Shown here: piece by piece, positions 2,491-55,044 of the stretch
Position numbering within the stretch: the stretch's first letter is position 1
Layout: every line of letters starts with the position of its first letter
DNA from: Octopus vulgaris
Lineage: Eukaryota
Assembly: GCA_951406725.2 (NCBI GenBank)
Contig: OX597820.1
Span: 68,572,001-68,636,000, forward strand
DNA: 64,000 nt
Direction: 5' to 3'
Made by a program: the position numbers and the translations under genes
Notes under the pieces: model-generated
Told to the model about the DNA's origin: nothing
Database searches by the model: none
Seen by the model: only the letters and a program-made list of their open reading frames with translations

Positions 2491-2999
2491 TCACACTCAC
2501 AATCCTATATACATACATGAACGCTCGCATACATACACATACATACAGAGACATATATAAATATAATACTATAGACTAATGGGCGAAATTGCCTTCAGAG
2601 TCAGTCTACAACAGAAGAAATAATTCGGTGGCCTGGGTTATAGTTTACCTTGTGTAATTTATTCTTTAGTCTTTGATTAATCTGAATTCTATTTGTGCAT
2701 GTATAAACTTATATGCAGGAATATACATGAAAATATATGGTATACACACGCACATACGCATACACACACATATGTATGTATATGTACACACACATGTATG
2801 TATATATATGTGTGTGTGAGCATATGGGCATACGCACAGACACACAAACACACGTACCCACACACACTCATACACACACACAAATATATAGATATGCATG
2901 TGCGCATATTTAGGTGTGGACGCATGTTTGTGTGTGTGTGTGTGATTTTGTTTAAATTTATTCCATTAATTTTAATGAATGCAAGATAGAGAATGCTGT

Positions 3000-3330
3000 A
3001 TTAGTTATAGTGTGAAAATATATTTATGGCCAGAATACACACCTATATTTTTCCTTCTACGTGTTCATGAAATCATGTGGAAGCTTAGAGATTGACAGTA
3101 GCCAATAGCCCAATATAAATTATTATTATTTTGCATATAGCTTGCACAAACGGACACATTTTTCATTAGTTGTCGACTGGGGATCTCAAGTATTTCTTCG
3201 CCTAACGACTTTATCGTCCCTTCCAGTGGTATCAAGTGGTAGTGATACAATGAGAGAATACCCGTGTTATATGGGTCACGCAATTATTTCAATCCTCGGT
3301 GTTGCCAACTTAGCATGCTACATGTAATTA
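3000..3330 (-). pseudogene. Highly decayed Gypsy-type integrase relic
   Basis: Frame-broken pieces ILSLYHYHL..TIKSL, KCVRLCKL, FHMIS and SGHKYIFTL resemble the zinc-binding domain and the start of the integrase core. Confidence 0.3.
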
Positions 3331-3991
3331 TATTCATCACAAACAAGTATCAAATATTGTGCTTCACTTCTCAGTGATGATTTGCAAATCTCTCTGTGGT
3401 TTAACTCTTACGTACATGTGAGGAAGCATTTAAAAACAGTCTTTCTGGAAACAGGTTCTATTTAGATTCAGTTTTAACCAGATATGTCACGACAGAGCTA
3501 GCCACAAACTCACAGCATTTAACCGAAACTGGATGCAACTTACACGTTTTTCTCGTGCATTACGCGATTCTTACTTTTTTACATTTAAGGTGATTTTACA
3601 CGATGGGCTTCTTTTAGTTTCCCTCTTTTTCTCTCACGAGGTTTCGGTCGGTCTGGAGGCATAGTGAAGTGCCATAGAGTAGAAATGAACTCTAAAGCTT
3701 TCAGCTGAAAATGCTTCTGCTTTAAATAATTCTATTTATTAACAGTATAGGTACTTTGACATGCTGAATGTTTTAGAAGAGACAAAACATAATCACTATG
3801 CCTTGATGGCATCAGTTCTGGTAAACTTGTAGCGAGACAAATGGGATGACAGGTGGTGTTTTGATACATCGCTGTTTGTTACGAATTTAAATCCTACTGA
3901 GGTCACCTTGGCTTTTCATCCTTATGCACAGAACGTCATGAGAAGTAGCAATACATTTAGGGCAATATAAATCAACTTTCTAAAAACTTCT

Positions 3992-4175
3992 GCGGGAGTG
4001 GCTATGTGGTAAGTAGCTTGCTAACCAACCACATGGTTCAGGGTTCAGTCCCACTGCGTGGCATCTTGGGCAAGTGTCTTCTGCTATAGCCCCGGGCCGA
4101 CCAATGCCTTGTGAGTGGATTTGGTAGACGGAAACTGAAAGAAGCCTGTCGTATATATGTATATATATAAGTATA
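3992..4175 (+). mobile_element. SINE family A, 5' half (tRNA-derived head plus CORE-like segment)
   Basis: A box TGGCTATGTGG, B box GGTTCAGTCCC and CORE-like CTTGGGCAAGTGTCTT, then the internal microsatellite. Matches other copies at 48480-48945 and 57203-57582. Confidence 0.85.
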
Positions 4176-4812
4176 CTAGCAGTATCGCCCGGCGTTGCTC
4201 GGGTTTGTAAGGGAAATAACTATATAAGCATTTTTAGAGAGTTATAGCAAAAAAATAGCAAAAAATGCATTAAAAATGGAAAAAATATGATGGTAAATTT
4301 TTTTTTAAATCGTTGACTCATCGTAGACATTTTTAGAGAGTTACTTCCCTTATATAATAGCGAAAAAATGCATTAAAATGGAAAAAAAACGATGGTAAAT
4401 TTTTTTTTAAATCGTAGACTCATGTAGACGCTTTCTTAGCCATTTCTGTTTTGGTGTCTTCAAGCCATGAAGTCGTTGTTCTAAAAGAACACTGGTCTCC
4501 TTGACAACGCATTACGACGTTGATTTCCTTACACTCCCTTCCCCACAGGTGCAGGTGTGAGCGTGGACGCCAACTCCGCCGCCATCGACACACGAAAAAT
4601 TATGCATTAAAATGGAATAAAAAATGATGTTAAATTATTTTTAAAATCGTAGACTCATCGTAGACGCGCGCTAATATTCAGACGGGCTCGATATGAATCA
4701 CGACTATAAGCTACCCGAATTTGGTTAAACTGTACCGCAAAATGTGGGAGTAGTTAGGAATCTAAATCGAAGGGGACAGACACTCACACAACTACAGTTT
4801 TATATATATAGA
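4176..4812 (-). mobile_element. Non-autonomous Helitron
   Basis: Minus strand starts a|TCTATATATATAAAA and ends with hairpin CCCGAGCAACGCCGGG then CTAG|t. Three internal subrepeats (aaatgcattaaaatgga...aatcgtagactcat). Confidence 0.85.
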
Positions 4813-4829
4813 TATACATAGCGCAGTAG

Positions 4830-5185
4830 TGGTGAGATATGACAGCAAAGAAAAGCATACATTCACTCTCTGCATGCAATTAGACTCGGAAAGTTCGTGA
4901 GGAACCCATTGACCCAATTTGCTGACTTTTCCGATAGCACACAGGTGTCAATGAATGGTTGAATGACCAAATCCAAGCTTCTCTGCTAGTTCCTCAACAG
5001 TTACGATGATATTTTGTTCCACCAGGGTTTTCAGGATGTCCTTGTCGAGTTCTACAGATCTTTCAGGATGAGGCTCGTCTTCTAGGCTGTAGTTTATGGC
5101 TCGGGATTTCTGGAACCACCATTGACACTGCCTTACGCTTATTGTCCAATCCCCATATACTGCATTAATATTTCTTGTACTTTGC
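4830..5185 (-). mobile_element. Mariner transposase N-terminal fragment
   Basis: INAVYGD..SVRQCQWWFQK..SLEDEPHPER..TVEELAEKLG..HSTI followed by GQWVPHEL: mariner HTH and WVPHEL motifs. Confidence 0.85.
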
Positions 5186-5247
5186 ACACATTTATATTCT
5201 GTTATTCTTTTATATGTTTCAGCCTTGAGGTTGTGGCCATGCTGGAT

Positions 5248-5291
<44 letters not shown>

Positions 5292-5518
5292 TATCTGTCT
5301 GTCTGTCTGTATGTATATATGTATATGTATGTGTGTGAACAATAATATTTTCAACAGATGTGTTGCAAATGTATCTGATTGTTCTCAAGCTTCAATACTG
5401 TGTGTGTGTGTTTGTGTGTGTGTGTATGTATGTATGTATATGTATGTATGTATGTATATGTATGTATGTATGTATGTGTGTATGTATGTATGTGTGTGTG
5501 TATGTATGTGTGTGTGTA

Positions 5519-5580
<62 letters not shown>

Positions 5581-5689
5581 TCTATGAGTGTATGTTTACT
5601 TTATTACTAATTACTCTCTTCCAAGAACATTTTCACTCACTCTTAGCTCTTAGCTTCCCATACATTTTACTCATATATCTATCAGCGTC

Positions 5690-6008
5690 ATAGACAGAAT
5701 ACTTTCACTTTAGTCTTCCTCAAATCACTGTCGCTATTTACTTTCATTTTATTCGTTGCCCACTGTGTGTGTGCGTTTGCGTGTGGTGTAAACCAGACTA
5801 AGAAAAGCATTTGACACACACACCAGAATGTGAGTTTTCTGTAAATTTTGCTTAATTGGAGTTTAAATTTTAAAAACTGGACCTGGCATGACGCGATGCA
5901 TTGTACTCTCAAAAATGCCAGGTAAATTGTAATTGAAGAAATCCTATATTGTAGATTTGTATAACTCCCAAAGGGAGGCAGATAAAATCTGCCTTTTATA
6001 ATAAGAGA
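5690..6008 (-). mobile_element. Second Helitron 5' end (3'-truncated)
   Basis: Minus strand a|TCTCTTATTATAAAAGGCAG resembles a Helitron 5' terminus and lies exactly where the SINE resumes. Confidence 0.55.
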
Positions 6009-6240
6009 TGTATGTATGTGTATGTGTTTGTGAGTCTGTTTTTGTACTCCTAGCATTGCTTGACAAACGATGCTGGTGTGTTTACCTCCCCGTAAATTAG
6101 CGGTTCGGCATAAGAGACCGATAGAATAAGTACTGGGCTTCCAAAGAATAAGTCCCGGGGTCGATTTGCTCGACTAAAGGCGGTGCTCCAGCATGGCCGC
6201 AGTCAAATGACTGAAACATGTAAAAGAGTAAAAGAGAGAG
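6009..6240 (+). mobile_element. SINE family A, 3' half
   Basis: cttgacaaacgatgctggtgtgttt...GGCGGTGCTCCAGCATGGCCGCAGTCAAATGACTGAAAC followed by (taaaagag)n; matches 57203-57390. Confidence 0.85.
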
Positions 6241-8082
6241 TATATCAGCGTTAGAAATGGATATACACAAAGATATGAACATTTTCGGTTTTTATAAATC
6301 ATTTTCTTAATACATTTGAAACTGATTTAATTCATTTAAGACACACTCAATAAACTTTTCTGAAGGTAAATGTTGAATTAAAGACGGATTAGTGACAAAT
6401 AATTCTCTTTTTGTTACTATAAAAAATTTAACTACTTAAATCTGGTATTGTATTTCATTTCGTTCTGCTTACTAAAACCTAGTTTAACTTTTTGTTTTCA
6501 CATTCTCCTGGATTCAGTATGTGTAGAATAACAAATAGAACAAAATGCATTGATCAGAATAATTACAGTATTAAACATTGTAACTACAGTCAGAAGCAGA
6601 AGAATAACAATCTCGTTATGTCTTCTGTACTTTCTCGTGAAGAGTTTCCATTCGTGTTAGATAACATCATCTTTTGGTTTCGCATCCAGCATTCCACAAC
6701 CTAAAATTCTTCGTTCATATATAACTTATATATAAAGAAAATAGTAAATAAATAAATTATGCAAGTAAATATATTACGTTATACATCATGATCAACAGTA
6801 AGATACGTCTGAATGTTATTTTAAAAGCAGAGAAAATTTCGCGTCTTTTCACTTAATGTTTTTCCTATTTTGCTTATTTGTTTCAACTTTTCAGCTTGTA
6901 AGCTTTTGTTTTCGATTGCATGAGAAATTCAATTTTGACACGCTAAACATAGCTTGTGGTTACAGATAATCAAAATATAAATTCATCTGGTTTTGAAGCC
7001 AAAAACCTCCATAATATTTAGATTGGTCAGGCTGCAAAAATAAATCGATGGCGGGTTTTTTGGAAGACAAGAAAACATATTTAACCGTAAGCTATTCACA
7101 AACTCCTACTGACATCAATGGCAGACGAGAAATATAATCGTCTCACATATTCGATATGTGACACTAACTTTAGATGTTATCGTCTTCTGAGAGTGTTAAA
7201 CCGAACATGATGTATAGAGGTGGCCCAGAGCATTAGAAATATTGAAGGCACTAATTTTAACTCGTGAGCATACTGTCTAATGACATTGTCCGGTATCAGT
7301 TTTGCTTATCATTACTGTGTGTGAAATGCAGCACACATAATCAGTTGCAATCTTTGCACAATTACTGTGAATGTAACGTTGAGTGGAGATATTATTTACC
7401 TTTCTTTTGCTGATGCAAATTAGACTACCATGCTTATTCCATGTCGTTCAGTCATACAATGAAAGCCACTTAATAGATTGATAATATGGTATCTTCATTT
7501 GTTTTCCAAATTCCTTAATCTACGAATATTTTCCACGGGGCAAATATTTACCGTCTTGAAATGATGTGATATTATTTTCTAGCTCAGCTTACATACGATG
7601 ATGAAAGCAACTTCTCGCGTATTAGTTATTTACAAGCGGCCAGTTAGCAACCAAATGAAATTGTAGTGCTAGAATGTCGTCTTGTATATTATAACGTAGG
7701 TTTTTATAATTATATAAGCCATAAACATACATATACTGCCAAGATACAGTTCAATACACTCTCACACACATTCACACGCAGACACATATACACACACTCA
7801 TACAGGTCCGAACATTTGTGTAAACGAATGAAAGGGGTCCCACATTACTTATGTAATGCATATATTACCTAATATATTTATCTGCAGATTGCTAGCAAAT
7901 GATTATACCGCGATTACCCTGAATATTACCGACATGTAAACACATGTACAATCGCTCAGGTGTCTTCATATTTATACGTATGTATGTAGGTGTGTATGCA
8001 TATGTGAATATATACGTATATATATATATATATATATGTATGTATACATAAGTATATATATATATATATATATATAAATATG

Positions 8083-19436: not shown

Positions 19437-19487
19437 TTTATTATTATTATTATCATCATCATCATCATCATTATATGCTTTACGGCG

Positions 19488-19552
<65 letters not shown>

Positions 19553-19867: not shown

Positions 19868-20431
19868 TTATAGGGGTAAGAAATTAGAAACATTTATTAC
19901 CAGTGGTTCACATGCGTAATAAATGTCAGAAGACAACACATTTTCATATATAAGAGTGTATAATGATTTATATACAAAGAGAAAACCCTTGACAGGGCTT
20001 CTTATATGCTAAAAAGGGCAGTTCAACACAAACCACGAAAAAAATAATTCTAAAGTGACGCCGATAATGGTACTAGACTAAAAATATATTATTATTAGTT
20101 AATCCGATACTCGAGATTCCCTATTAATGACCGAATAAATTAATTTGCATCCGTAGTTCATCAGTGGGATGTCTAAATCAATGCATGATTATTTCGCTTA
20201 ATACGTACAGAAAAAAAAACACATGCGATCCCACTGATGAACTACGGATGACAAATTAATGTACTCGGTCATTAATAAGGAAACTCGAGCATGGGGTTAA
20301 CTACGAATAAGTTTTTTTTCATTTTAGTACCATTATCGGTGTGCCTTTAGAATAAATTCTTTCGTGGTTTGGAATTCACTGCCTATCTTAGCATGTAAGT
20401 AGTCCTGTCAATGGTCTTCTCTCTGTCTATA
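19868..20431. mobile_element. Fold-back element with about 200-bp arms, each carrying a hammerhead motif
   Basis: Arms 19969-20170 and 20228-20431, with inner CATCCGTAGTTCATCAGTGGGAT perfectly inverted. AGGGGT...ACCAGTGGT leader. Confidence 0.8.
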
Positions 20432-20443
20432 GATCTTTATACA

Positions 20444-20514
<71 letters not shown>

Positions 20515-24214: not shown

Positions 24215-24493
24215 TTAAAATGAGGGTGAAAAATTGGATGTTAATTTAATTAACATGAATTTAACACCAGTGGTCTAGCATATAAAAATCTGAAAGTTCA
24301 GTAAATTGTATTATATACATAAGAGAGGGATGACCACTATGTGGGAAACCCTTATGCTTGAAGAAGAACCGCTATGGTCTTACCACTAAGAAACGATCTG
24401 GTGTTTGCTAAATTTTTCGTGAGAACATTTCTTAGCGGTAAGACCATAGCGGATCTACTTCTAGCAGAAGGGTTTTCCACATAGTGGTCGTTC

Positions 24494-24500
<7 letters not shown>
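24215..24500. mobile_element. Fold-back element with about 71-bp arms
   Basis: Arms 24323-24393 and 24428-24498 with about 8 mismatches. AGGGT...ACCAGTGGT leader; followed by (TA)n. Confidence 0.75.
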
Positions 24501-24541
<41 letters not shown>

Positions 24542-29586: not shown

Positions 29587-30818
29587 TCAGGCCATTAAGA
29601 ATAAAATGTCCGATTTTCTTCTGCACCAAGGTTTTGTCCTGACAGTTCTTCGTTTTACAACATTGAAGAGTTACATCATCACTTTTCAAATTGCAATTCA
29701 TGGTGTCTGATTATATTGTGAGTTTTCTCTTGTAAATCAATTTTTGTGAACCCATCGATAGATAAAACATTCTTGTTGTTTATGAATACGAGTCCCATTG
29801 TGGAACCTATGTATCCCAGACTGCTCATGAAAGTGATGTTTGGTGAAGATGTGGCAAATGAGCGCACTGTACGTCGATGGTTCGAGAAGTTTCGGTCTGG
29901 TGACTTTACTCTTGAAAATCAGCCCCGTGGTAGACCCGAAACCAAGATGGATAATGATGAACCGGAAACTGTAAGTGGGAGCGGATGCATCTCAAACTAT
30001 GTGAGAATTAGCAGCAAGATTTGATGCTTCAATTCAAACTGTATTCAAACGTCTGACACAAATCGGCAAGCTTCAGAAGGTGAACAAGTGGATTCCACAC
30101 GAACTGAACGGACATCAAATGATACGTCGTCTTGACACTTGCTGTACTTTGCTGTCACGGCATAAAAGCGAACTGTTTTTGCATCGTATTGTTACGTGTA
30201 ATAAAAACATGTATTCTTTTCAACAATAGCTAGCGTTCTGCACGGTGGTTGGATAGAGACGAAGCGCCAAATCACAATCTAAAACAGAATATTCAACAAC
30301 AAAAGCTAATGGTGTCTATTTGGTGGTCCAGCGCCGCTGTCATCCACTACAGTTCATGAGACCTGGTAAGTTCATTACAGGGGATGTATACATCAACGAA
30401 TTGGATGAAATGATGAGTGACCTTGCAATTAAAAAACCGAGATTGCTCAATAGAAACAGACCAATTGTCTTGCAAGACAATGCTCGACTACATGTTGCTA
30501 CTCAAATTATAGGAACTGAACTTGGAAGTACTCTGAAGTTCACCAGATCTTTCACTAACTTACTCTCAGGTTTTCCAGACAACCTTTTCTAAGGAAAACA
30601 GTTCAAATATGAAGAATATGCAAAAAGAGCCTTTCGTGATTTCATCACCTCTGGCTTTCCAGAATTCTTCGCTGACGGCATAAATAAAATACCAATAAAA
30701 TGGCAAAATTGTGTTCATAATTTAGGTGCATACTCTGATTAACTACATTGGTTTTTGTTGAGATAAAGTATAATAAACTTTCAGTTCAAAATCGGACATT
30801 TCATTCTTAATGACCTGA
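29587..30818 (+). mobile_element. Near full-length mariner (DD34D type) with pseudogenised transposase
   Basis: 31-bp TIRs with 2 mismatches (TCAGGYCATTAAGAATRAAATGTCCGATTTT), TA on both sides. ERTVRRWFEKFRSG, WIPHEL, LQDNARLH. Confidence 0.92.
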
Positions 30819-30938: not shown

Positions 30939-31256
30939 TAATATTAGGGTAGCAAAAAATTCAATAGAAATTATTTTGCCACCAGCGGTCCAGTGAAAAA
31001 GAGGAAATAGTCAGAGACCATTAATAAATTCAACAACAAATTGAGGAACGGCTATAATAGGCCGTTCGACCCACTAGAAGAAGCAGCCAGGGCTCCAACC
31101 GCAAATAGTAGCTGAAACAATGCATTGTCTAAAGATGAACGGGGTAAATGTTTTTTAATTTTCCTCCTTTCGGAATTACTACTATTTGCGGTTGGAGCCC
31201 TGGCTGCTTCTTCTAGTGGGTCGAACGGCCTATTATAGCCGTTCCTCAATTTTTTG

Positions 31257-31258
<2 letters not shown>
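30933..31258. mobile_element. Fold-back element with perfect 74-bp arms and a partial hammerhead
   Basis: 31038-31111 is the exact reverse complement of 31179-31252. GAAACAATGCATTGTC at 31114-31129; (TA)n on both sides. Confidence 0.85.
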
Positions 31259-31299
<41 letters not shown>

Positions 31300-48080: not shown

Positions 48081-48243
48081 GTCTGTCTGTCTGTCTGTTT
48101 GCCTGTCTGTCTGTCTGTCTATTTTTCCATCCATACATGTAACTATCTATCTCTATCTATCTTTCAATATATATATTCATGTTTGTATAAAAACATGCAT
48201 AAAAGCATACATATATATATGTATATGTAAATGTAAATATATA

Positions 48244-48303
48244 AGGCGGTGCTCCAGCATGGCCGCAGTCAAATGACTGAAACAAGTAAAAGAGTAAAAG
48301 AGT
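48244..48303 (+). mobile_element. SINE-A/CR1 3' tip
   Basis: AGGCGGTGCTCCAGCATGGCCGCAGTCAAATGACTGAAAC followed by (taaaagag)2. Confidence 0.8.
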
Positions 48304-48384
48304 ATATATATATATATATACAGACACATATACATATATGTATATCTTTACATATGTATATATATATATATGCATACATATATT

Positions 48385-48443
<59 letters not shown>

Positions 48444-48479
48444 CTATATATATATATATATATACACACACGCACATTC

Positions 48480-48737
48480 CTTTATTATTCTACTTGTTTC
48501 AGTCATTTGACTGCGGTCTTGCGGGGGCATCGCCTTCAAAGAATTGTAGGATTTTCGGTCGACAAATCGACAAATCGACCCCAGATGTTCCTCTTTTTAA
48601 GTTCTTCTCTATCGGTCCCTTATGTTGATTCACTAAGTTACAGTGACATAAATACAGCAAAATCTGTTCTAATGCAATGTTAGACACGCACAAGGGCACG
48701 AAGACACACACAGTACATGTACACACACACACACACA

Positions 48738-49790: not shown

Positions 49791-55044
<5,254 letters not shown>

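Follow-up and report, generated by a model that had tools for sequence, protein, structure and literature searches.

A SINE interrupted by a nested block

The window analysed here is a stretch of DNA of 64,000 nucleotides, in which positions 3992 to 6240 hold a SINE whose head and tail are separated by a block of 1833 bp (4176-6008). The block is composed of a high-copy repeat (element X), a Helitron-type element (element Y) and old repeat DNA lying between them (passenger M), arranged as follows:

3992-4175, plus strand: SINE head, a 5′ part of tRNA type in which motifs like the A and B boxes occur, and the first half of the mid-microsatellite, from BLAST and alignment
4176-4812, minus strand: element Y, a 637-bp non-autonomous Helitron-type element, from sequence and fold
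4813-5606, no strand assigned: passenger M, a 794-bp mosaic of old repeat DNA whose boundary towards X follows from the X end at 5607
4822-5196, minus strand: Tc1/mariner transposase fragment, N-terminal HTH region, from translation and Pfam (HTH_48, E 4.5e-07)
5198-5249, minus strand: older SINE/LINE 3′ tail fragment adjoining the mariner fragment, 79% identical over 52 nt to the focal tail at 6184-6235
5250-5595, no strand assigned: microsatellites at 5250-5337 and at about 5399-5595, separated by about 60 bp of other DNA, from Tandem Repeats Finder
5607-6008, minus strand: element X, a high-copy repeat represented here by 402 bp, from depth and joints in the contig runs X4, X16 and X17 and from folds
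6009-6240, plus strand: SINE tail (the remaining mid-microsatellite and the 3′ part), 90% identical to the copy at 57396-57205

When the block is excised, the SINE head, whose terminal base is A at 4175, meets the tail, whose first base is T at 6009, at an A|T dinucleotide within what is the mid-microsatellite of a normal SINE (...ataagtata|tgtatgtatgtg...; across the excision point the rejoined sequence reads ...tatatataagtata|tgtatgtatgtg...). Alignment with four other copies in the window showed that the rejoined SINE is collinear with them, without gap or overlap, that the join falls at the usual position of the mid-microsatellite, and that these paralogous copies match the reconstructed empty site of the whole unit. 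The longest repeat common to both junction zones is 5 bp, and repeats around the SINE ends are likewise no longer than 5 bp, so that the block has no target duplication and no TSD links the head to the tail. Sequence and alignment are in agreement here with an earlier note on this DNA, according to which removal of 4176-6008 rejoins a SINE at A|T without duplication.

The start of the head is approximate, with homology from 3997 and box motifs judged by eye. In BLAST comparisons the head is 71-87% identical to five other head fragments of the window, and two of these five heads lack a nearby tail that would match them. Identities of the focal head/tail to three other copies holding both parts were 84.6/90.1, 77.0/75.3 and 74.1/66.7%, and this identical ranking fits what is expected of the halves of one SINE. 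Against a single SINE speak the CpG observed/expected ratio, 0.38 in the head versus 0.98 in the tail, and the heads without a tail. We take the focal SINE to be of the octopus type, which together with the one named protein match for the passenger (Octopus sinensis) makes an octopus the probable host.

Related and other repeats are present elsewhere in the window. Two nearby SINE tails lie in opposite orientation at 48243-48536, with 48243-48302 being 98% identical over 60 bp to the 3′ end of the focal SINE, and a 30-bp fragment of an old SINE head at 3597-3626 (minus strand) is 83% complementary to 4126-4155. Long stretches that match their own reverse complements (68-80% identity over 90-660 bp) are found at 19438-19534, 19946-20454, 24312-24509, 31024-31266, 49791-50102 and 51487-52203, and could represent inverted repeat elements or DNA rich in microsatellites.

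Four of the 24 listed public runs were compared with 5590-6790 at 90% likeness, one of raw reads (X21, organism A) and three of contigs (X4, X16 and X17, organisms B, D and E). The SINE tail reached very high depth in the three contig runs. The last ~25 bp of the SINE were found together with the right flank on a single contig in X4 and likewise in X16, indicating that the SINE end exists in organisms B and D, where the contigs differ from the right flank at 9 positions in 575. None of the contigs listed for the three runs spans 6008/6009. In X21, 11 raw reads were matched from 1,934 million letters, none of them bridging a junction, and this run is uninformative; such scarcity contrasts with the extreme abundance of the SINE tail in the contig runs under the same species label, and could be due to filtering or to a different organism. 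In small runs, 0.24-0.39 of the sampled words of 2900-7400 were present, close to the upper limit of about 0.35 that might be contributed by repeats alone (the SINE, X, Y and the microsatellites).

Read on the minus strand, the block starts with A|TC at 6008 (TCTCTTATTATAAAAGG), holds a second A|TC end at 4812 (TCTATATATATAAAAC), and closes with a hairpin at 4203-4188, 8 nt and CTAG|T (4179-4176), all of which can be read directly in the sequence as the earlier note had described them. A loose Helitron-like 5′ motif occurs three times in the window compared to 1.17 times in shuffled sequences (maximum 5; 100 shuffles), and the motif by itself is therefore not significant. The positions of the signals are another matter: that the TC and the hairpin-CTAG lie exactly at both points where the SINE stops and resumes is beyond chance, and so is the fact that X is a high-copy repeat. 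The structure is a real nested arrangement, for which one boundary was wrongly placed in the first description.

Elements X and Y and the passenger between them

Element Y starts with TC at 4812-4811, with A just before it, and at its 3′ side the CTRR motif takes the form of CTAG, found 8 nt beyond the hairpin. This hairpin is weak if taken alone (z −1.68; 14 of 200 shuffles equally good). The element is set between A and T without target duplication or TIR (3 of 30 terminal bases complementary) and contains three internal subrepeats of 70-100 bp, at 4229-4328, 4328-4429 and 4593-4667. Judging by its sequence, Y has all the marks of a putative non-autonomous canonical Helitron. Excision of Y alone also leaves A|T, and Y is adjoined by 8 bp of microsatellite-like DNA. 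A second copy of Y was not found within the window, and an exact-pattern scan with its 3′ end returned 0 loci in JGI metagenome contigs, a collection that is not expected to contain this animal.

Element X is a high-copy repeat, as follows from its depth in all three contig runs, which exceeded that of the single-copy right flank 2,659-8,248-fold in X4, 4,469-34,916-fold in X16 and 3,560-35,373-fold in X17 (ten bins over 5590-5999), values that represent summed depth and not copy number. The earlier note had placed the inner boundary of X at 5690. There, the hairpin is not significant (z −0.87) and high depth goes on leftward, so that X extends well beyond that position and remains high-copy down to about 5607 in three of three contig runs. 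Joints leading from 5729/5736 back to 5607/5611 were present in all three runs, disclosing a unit of about 127 bp (5607 to ~5733) that is tandem in other X copies and single here, and the depth of bin 5590-5630 amounts to 0.54-0.66 of that of the next bin, where 0.585 would be expected if the family ended at 5607. In addition, loose ends at 5699 and 5742 in X16 and X17 point to an X subfamily with a different tandem-unit end, and the severalfold greater depth of 5754-5999 compared to 5607-5753 implies that several subfamilies share the first 250 bp of X.

At its outer end, the family homology of X reaches at least 6004, and the TC at 6008, preceded by A in this copy, is compatible with other X copies, the comparison having skipped 6005-6041. 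A hairpin with an 8-bp stem lies at 5994-5976, on the 5′ side of X and 14 nt inside its end (z −3.47, equalled by 1 of 200 shuffles). At the opposite side, no terminator hairpin was detected (5586-5640, z +0.19), and the homology of X halts near 5607 at TTAG|T. In other X copies this TTAG is a tandem-unit boundary with a further unit next to it. Such lack of an own 3′ hairpin and CTRR is what a 3′-defective copy of X would show. TTAG|T differs from CTAG|T by one base, and excision of X alone also leaves A|T (...tttatta|tgtatg..., with TTAG|T as the minus-strand end). The parts of X and Y that are present are unrelated, with a local alignment score of 19 compared to a mean of 21 in shuffles.

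Within about 400 bp of X, 2-4 differences were held by the majority of the family depth (5910 and 5919 and, in two of the runs, 5708 and 5646), compared to 3 within about 150 bp of the SINE tail (6096, 6111 and 6141), both counts being incomplete; the lower number of fixed differences in X fits an insertion of X that would be younger than the SINE. By subtraction, 6 records in X4, 7 in X16 and 0 in X17 run past the left end at 5590, based on 7 and 8 overruns in X4 and X16, respectively, one of which in each is at the right end. The X4 and X16 records may represent the orthologous junction or a few further copies of the composite. Exact-pattern scans with the 5′ end of X gave 0 loci in metagenome contigs, prokaryote genome contigs and viral contigs, where this animal is not expected.

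Other assignments of X and of the block were considered and rejected. As a Helentron or HINE on the plus strand, X should carry subterminal inverted repeats, and none of at least 11 bp is present within 4813-6008; the sole inverted pair in X is a local one of 9 bp (5881/5915), although truncation may have removed the partner of a subterminal repeat. Furthermore, homology does not end at the T run of 5994-5997 but extends, with 0.36-0.71 of the depth that precedes, to 6004 or beyond. The junction, too, is of the A|T type with TC and not T|T. The block, M or X as a cut-and-paste TIR transposon is rejected by 3-10 of 30 complementary terminal bases and by flanking repeats of only 5-6 bp.

Since X reaches 5607, the passenger covers 4813-5606, that is, 794 bp. 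The 1.2 kb of other DNA of which the earlier note spoke corresponds to 4813-6008 (1196 bp) and includes X, and the cargo is thus smaller than was thought. Its composition is as that note described it, with the mariner fragment (supported by the HTH_48 match), the SINE/LINE tail and the microsatellites all lying between the two 5′ ends. Neither terminal repeats of its own nor a target duplication were found for the passenger, and BLAST gave no second copy in the window. The segment 4813-4845 was also inspected as a decayed SINE head and rejected (best local score 16).

The mariner fragment is cut at both ends and has one in-frame stop (4950-4948), and its nearest proteins are 60-74% identical (7 matches among 8 candidates). 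The HTH_48 match was obtained for one of the two mariner pieces scanned. A reading in which the mariner continues into the flanks was dismissed, with neither an N-terminal nor a catalytic continuation seen there. A frame of 100 codons (5250-4948, minus strand) begins in the old SINE tail and crosses the mariner HTH, and is probably fortuitous. A protein search with it found no near-identical copy, the best of 7 matches being 74% identical and the only one named belonging to Octopus sinensis; this blank is a weak one, since gene annotation seldom includes frames of this kind. Between the microsatellites, a short frame at 5340-5395 (minus strand) presumably resembles the N-terminal helix of mariner, and tblastn against seven relatives gave no significant match for it. 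A more distant, second mariner transposase fragment lies at 29996-30157 (plus strand), 37% identical over 54 aa to that of the passenger.

Possible origins of the block

We consider it probable that the 1833-bp block was inserted in one rolling-circle event, as a composite Helitron. According to such a scenario, X would have been deprived of its 3′ part at the donor locus, the break falling on a boundary between tandem units, and Y would have been located 0.8 kb downstream of it in the same orientation. A RepHel transposase acting in trans would then nick at the TC of X, and rolling-circle copying would pass the internal 5′ end of Y and terminate at the hairpin-CTAG of Y. The product, X-passenger-Y, would finally land in the AT-rich microsatellite of the SINE. 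This proposal is supported by TC and CTAG lying exactly at the SINE break points, without TSD or TIR, and by the structure of the block, which holds the 5′ and 3′ ends of two elements in the same orientation with mariner cargo between them, the mariner fragment being cut on both sides. Against it counts that neither a donor locus nor another copy of the passenger was found by BLAST of the window or by the protein search. As for a RepHel partner, the window contains no ORF of Helitron size, the longest stop-to-stop frame being 229 aa (22 frames of at least 150 aa). The central idea of the earlier note, a 3′-defective Helitron borrowing the terminator of a downstream one, is hence retained in a corrected form: the high copy number of X, its lack of a terminator hairpin and the collinear SINE halves speak for it, and the boundary assigned to X and the size of the cargo had to be abandoned.

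Alternatively, the two elements could have arrived by separate insertions, Y into a SINE consisting of a head only and X into a different SINE consisting of a tail only, with the 0.8 kb between them being native and X being either complete at 402 bp or truncated later. Separate insertions could take place because X alone and Y alone each leave A|T, and the TTAG|T at the end of X, the 8 bp of microsatellite-like DNA beside Y and the long microsatellite just left of X agree with them, as do the abundance of half SINEs in the window and the missing TSD between head and tail. However, such a history requires complementary SINE halves on the same strand, with like divergence and cut in the same microsatellite, to lie 1.8 kb apart, and both cuts to be occupied by Helitron-type elements, of which only these two were seen in the 64 kb. 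Moreover, no hairpin stands before the TTAG, and in other copies a further unit comes after this TTAG, which there marks the boundary of tandem units. We therefore regard separate insertions as unlikely. The perfect rejoining of the SINE would be explained equally well if a full-length X had inserted at A|T into one SINE and its 3′ part had afterwards been replaced in place by passenger and Y, through break repair or gene conversion from another locus and without composite transposition. A tandem-unit boundary, at which X is cut, is a likely site of slippage or template switching, and yet the CTAG of Y would have to fall exactly at the 3′ end of X itself, which requires 3′ sequence shared by the two elements, and no similarity to Y is found in that part of X which is present (local score 19, shuffle mean 21). 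Such a two-step replacement seems improbable to us.

The composite could also be older than the insertion described here, if X-passenger-Y were an established chimeric family in many copies, with capture having happened earlier in a master copy and with an ordinary insertion at this SINE. The 6 and 7 records beyond 5590 in X4 and X16 exceed what would be expected from a single clean orthologous contig, and amplified captures are known, as described for HelibatN3 in PMC4778049. On the other hand, X17 has 0 records beyond 5590 despite the 3,560-fold depth of X in that run, depth arithmetic sets the high-copy end near 5607, and no protein near-identical to the passenger frame was found, the last point being a weak one. 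We regard an established family of this kind as unlikely.

Relation to known Helitrons and significance

The proposed mechanism is already published and not new. In the model of Tempel et al. 2007, as presented in PMC4224331, a nearby Helitron provides the terminator, giving rise to a chimera with the host DNA between the two elements, and the same source documents HelibatN539 in bats as a composite Helitron with its donor locus. As in HelibatN539, one Helitron's 5′ end and the 3′ end of a second, oriented alike, would here have moved together with the DNA between them. The differences lie in the cargo, which in HelibatN539 is a piece of the KCNQ5 gene (PMC4224331) and here is decayed repeat DNA, and in the donor locus, found for HelibatN539 and unseen here. 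Furthermore, the downstream element of our composite is complete and keeps its own 5′ end inside, and the recipient SINE serves as a built-in check of the empty site.

The junctions also conform to what PMC4778049 describes for Helitrons: 5′-TC is linked to an A and CTAG-3′ to a T, no duplication arises, and AT-rich targets are preferred. In the same paper, loss of the 3′ hairpin of Helraiser leads to read-through to a downstream terminator, and copies in bats carry new 3′ ends derived from adjacent Helitrons. The block shares with these read-through products the TC start, the CTAG end, the A|T target and the missing duplication. Helraiser is an experimental system built on a reconstructed bat element, whereas the mechanism considered here is deduced from anatomy in a window that holds no coding partner. 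X further resembles the Helentron/HINE/DINE-1 elements described in PMC4067079 in having internal tandem units, a microsatellite and a stem-loop near one end, but the 11-15-bp subterminal inverted repeats, the T-run end and the TT insertion given there for Helentrons and HINEs are absent from it.

In the O. vulgaris assembly, Helitrons amount to 1.02% and belong to 84 families, 8 of them recently active (PMC13282606); neither the X nor the Y terminus string occurs in the supplement of that paper. No report of composite Helitrons in cephalopods was found in the literature covered, most subscription journals lying outside this coverage. It is doubtful, in our opinion, that X-passenger-Y became a new mobile unit, built from two unrelated non-autonomous families and copied further in the lineage. 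If it did, the locus would record how a chimeric Helitron family arose, the empty site being anchored by the SINE, and pieces of mariner and SINE would have been spread through what is probably the genome of a cephalopod.

The cargo, decayed repeat DNA, shows no sign of function, and the locus neither opens nor settles a standing question. It illustrates why repeat annotation of such a region would give several unrelated fragments. If the composite reading is right, the locus would be a case of terminator borrowing across families at a single site, for which the recipient SINE supplies the empty site, and it would add a probable octopus as a taxon to a mechanism for which a model, cases in bats and a reproduction in cells already exist.
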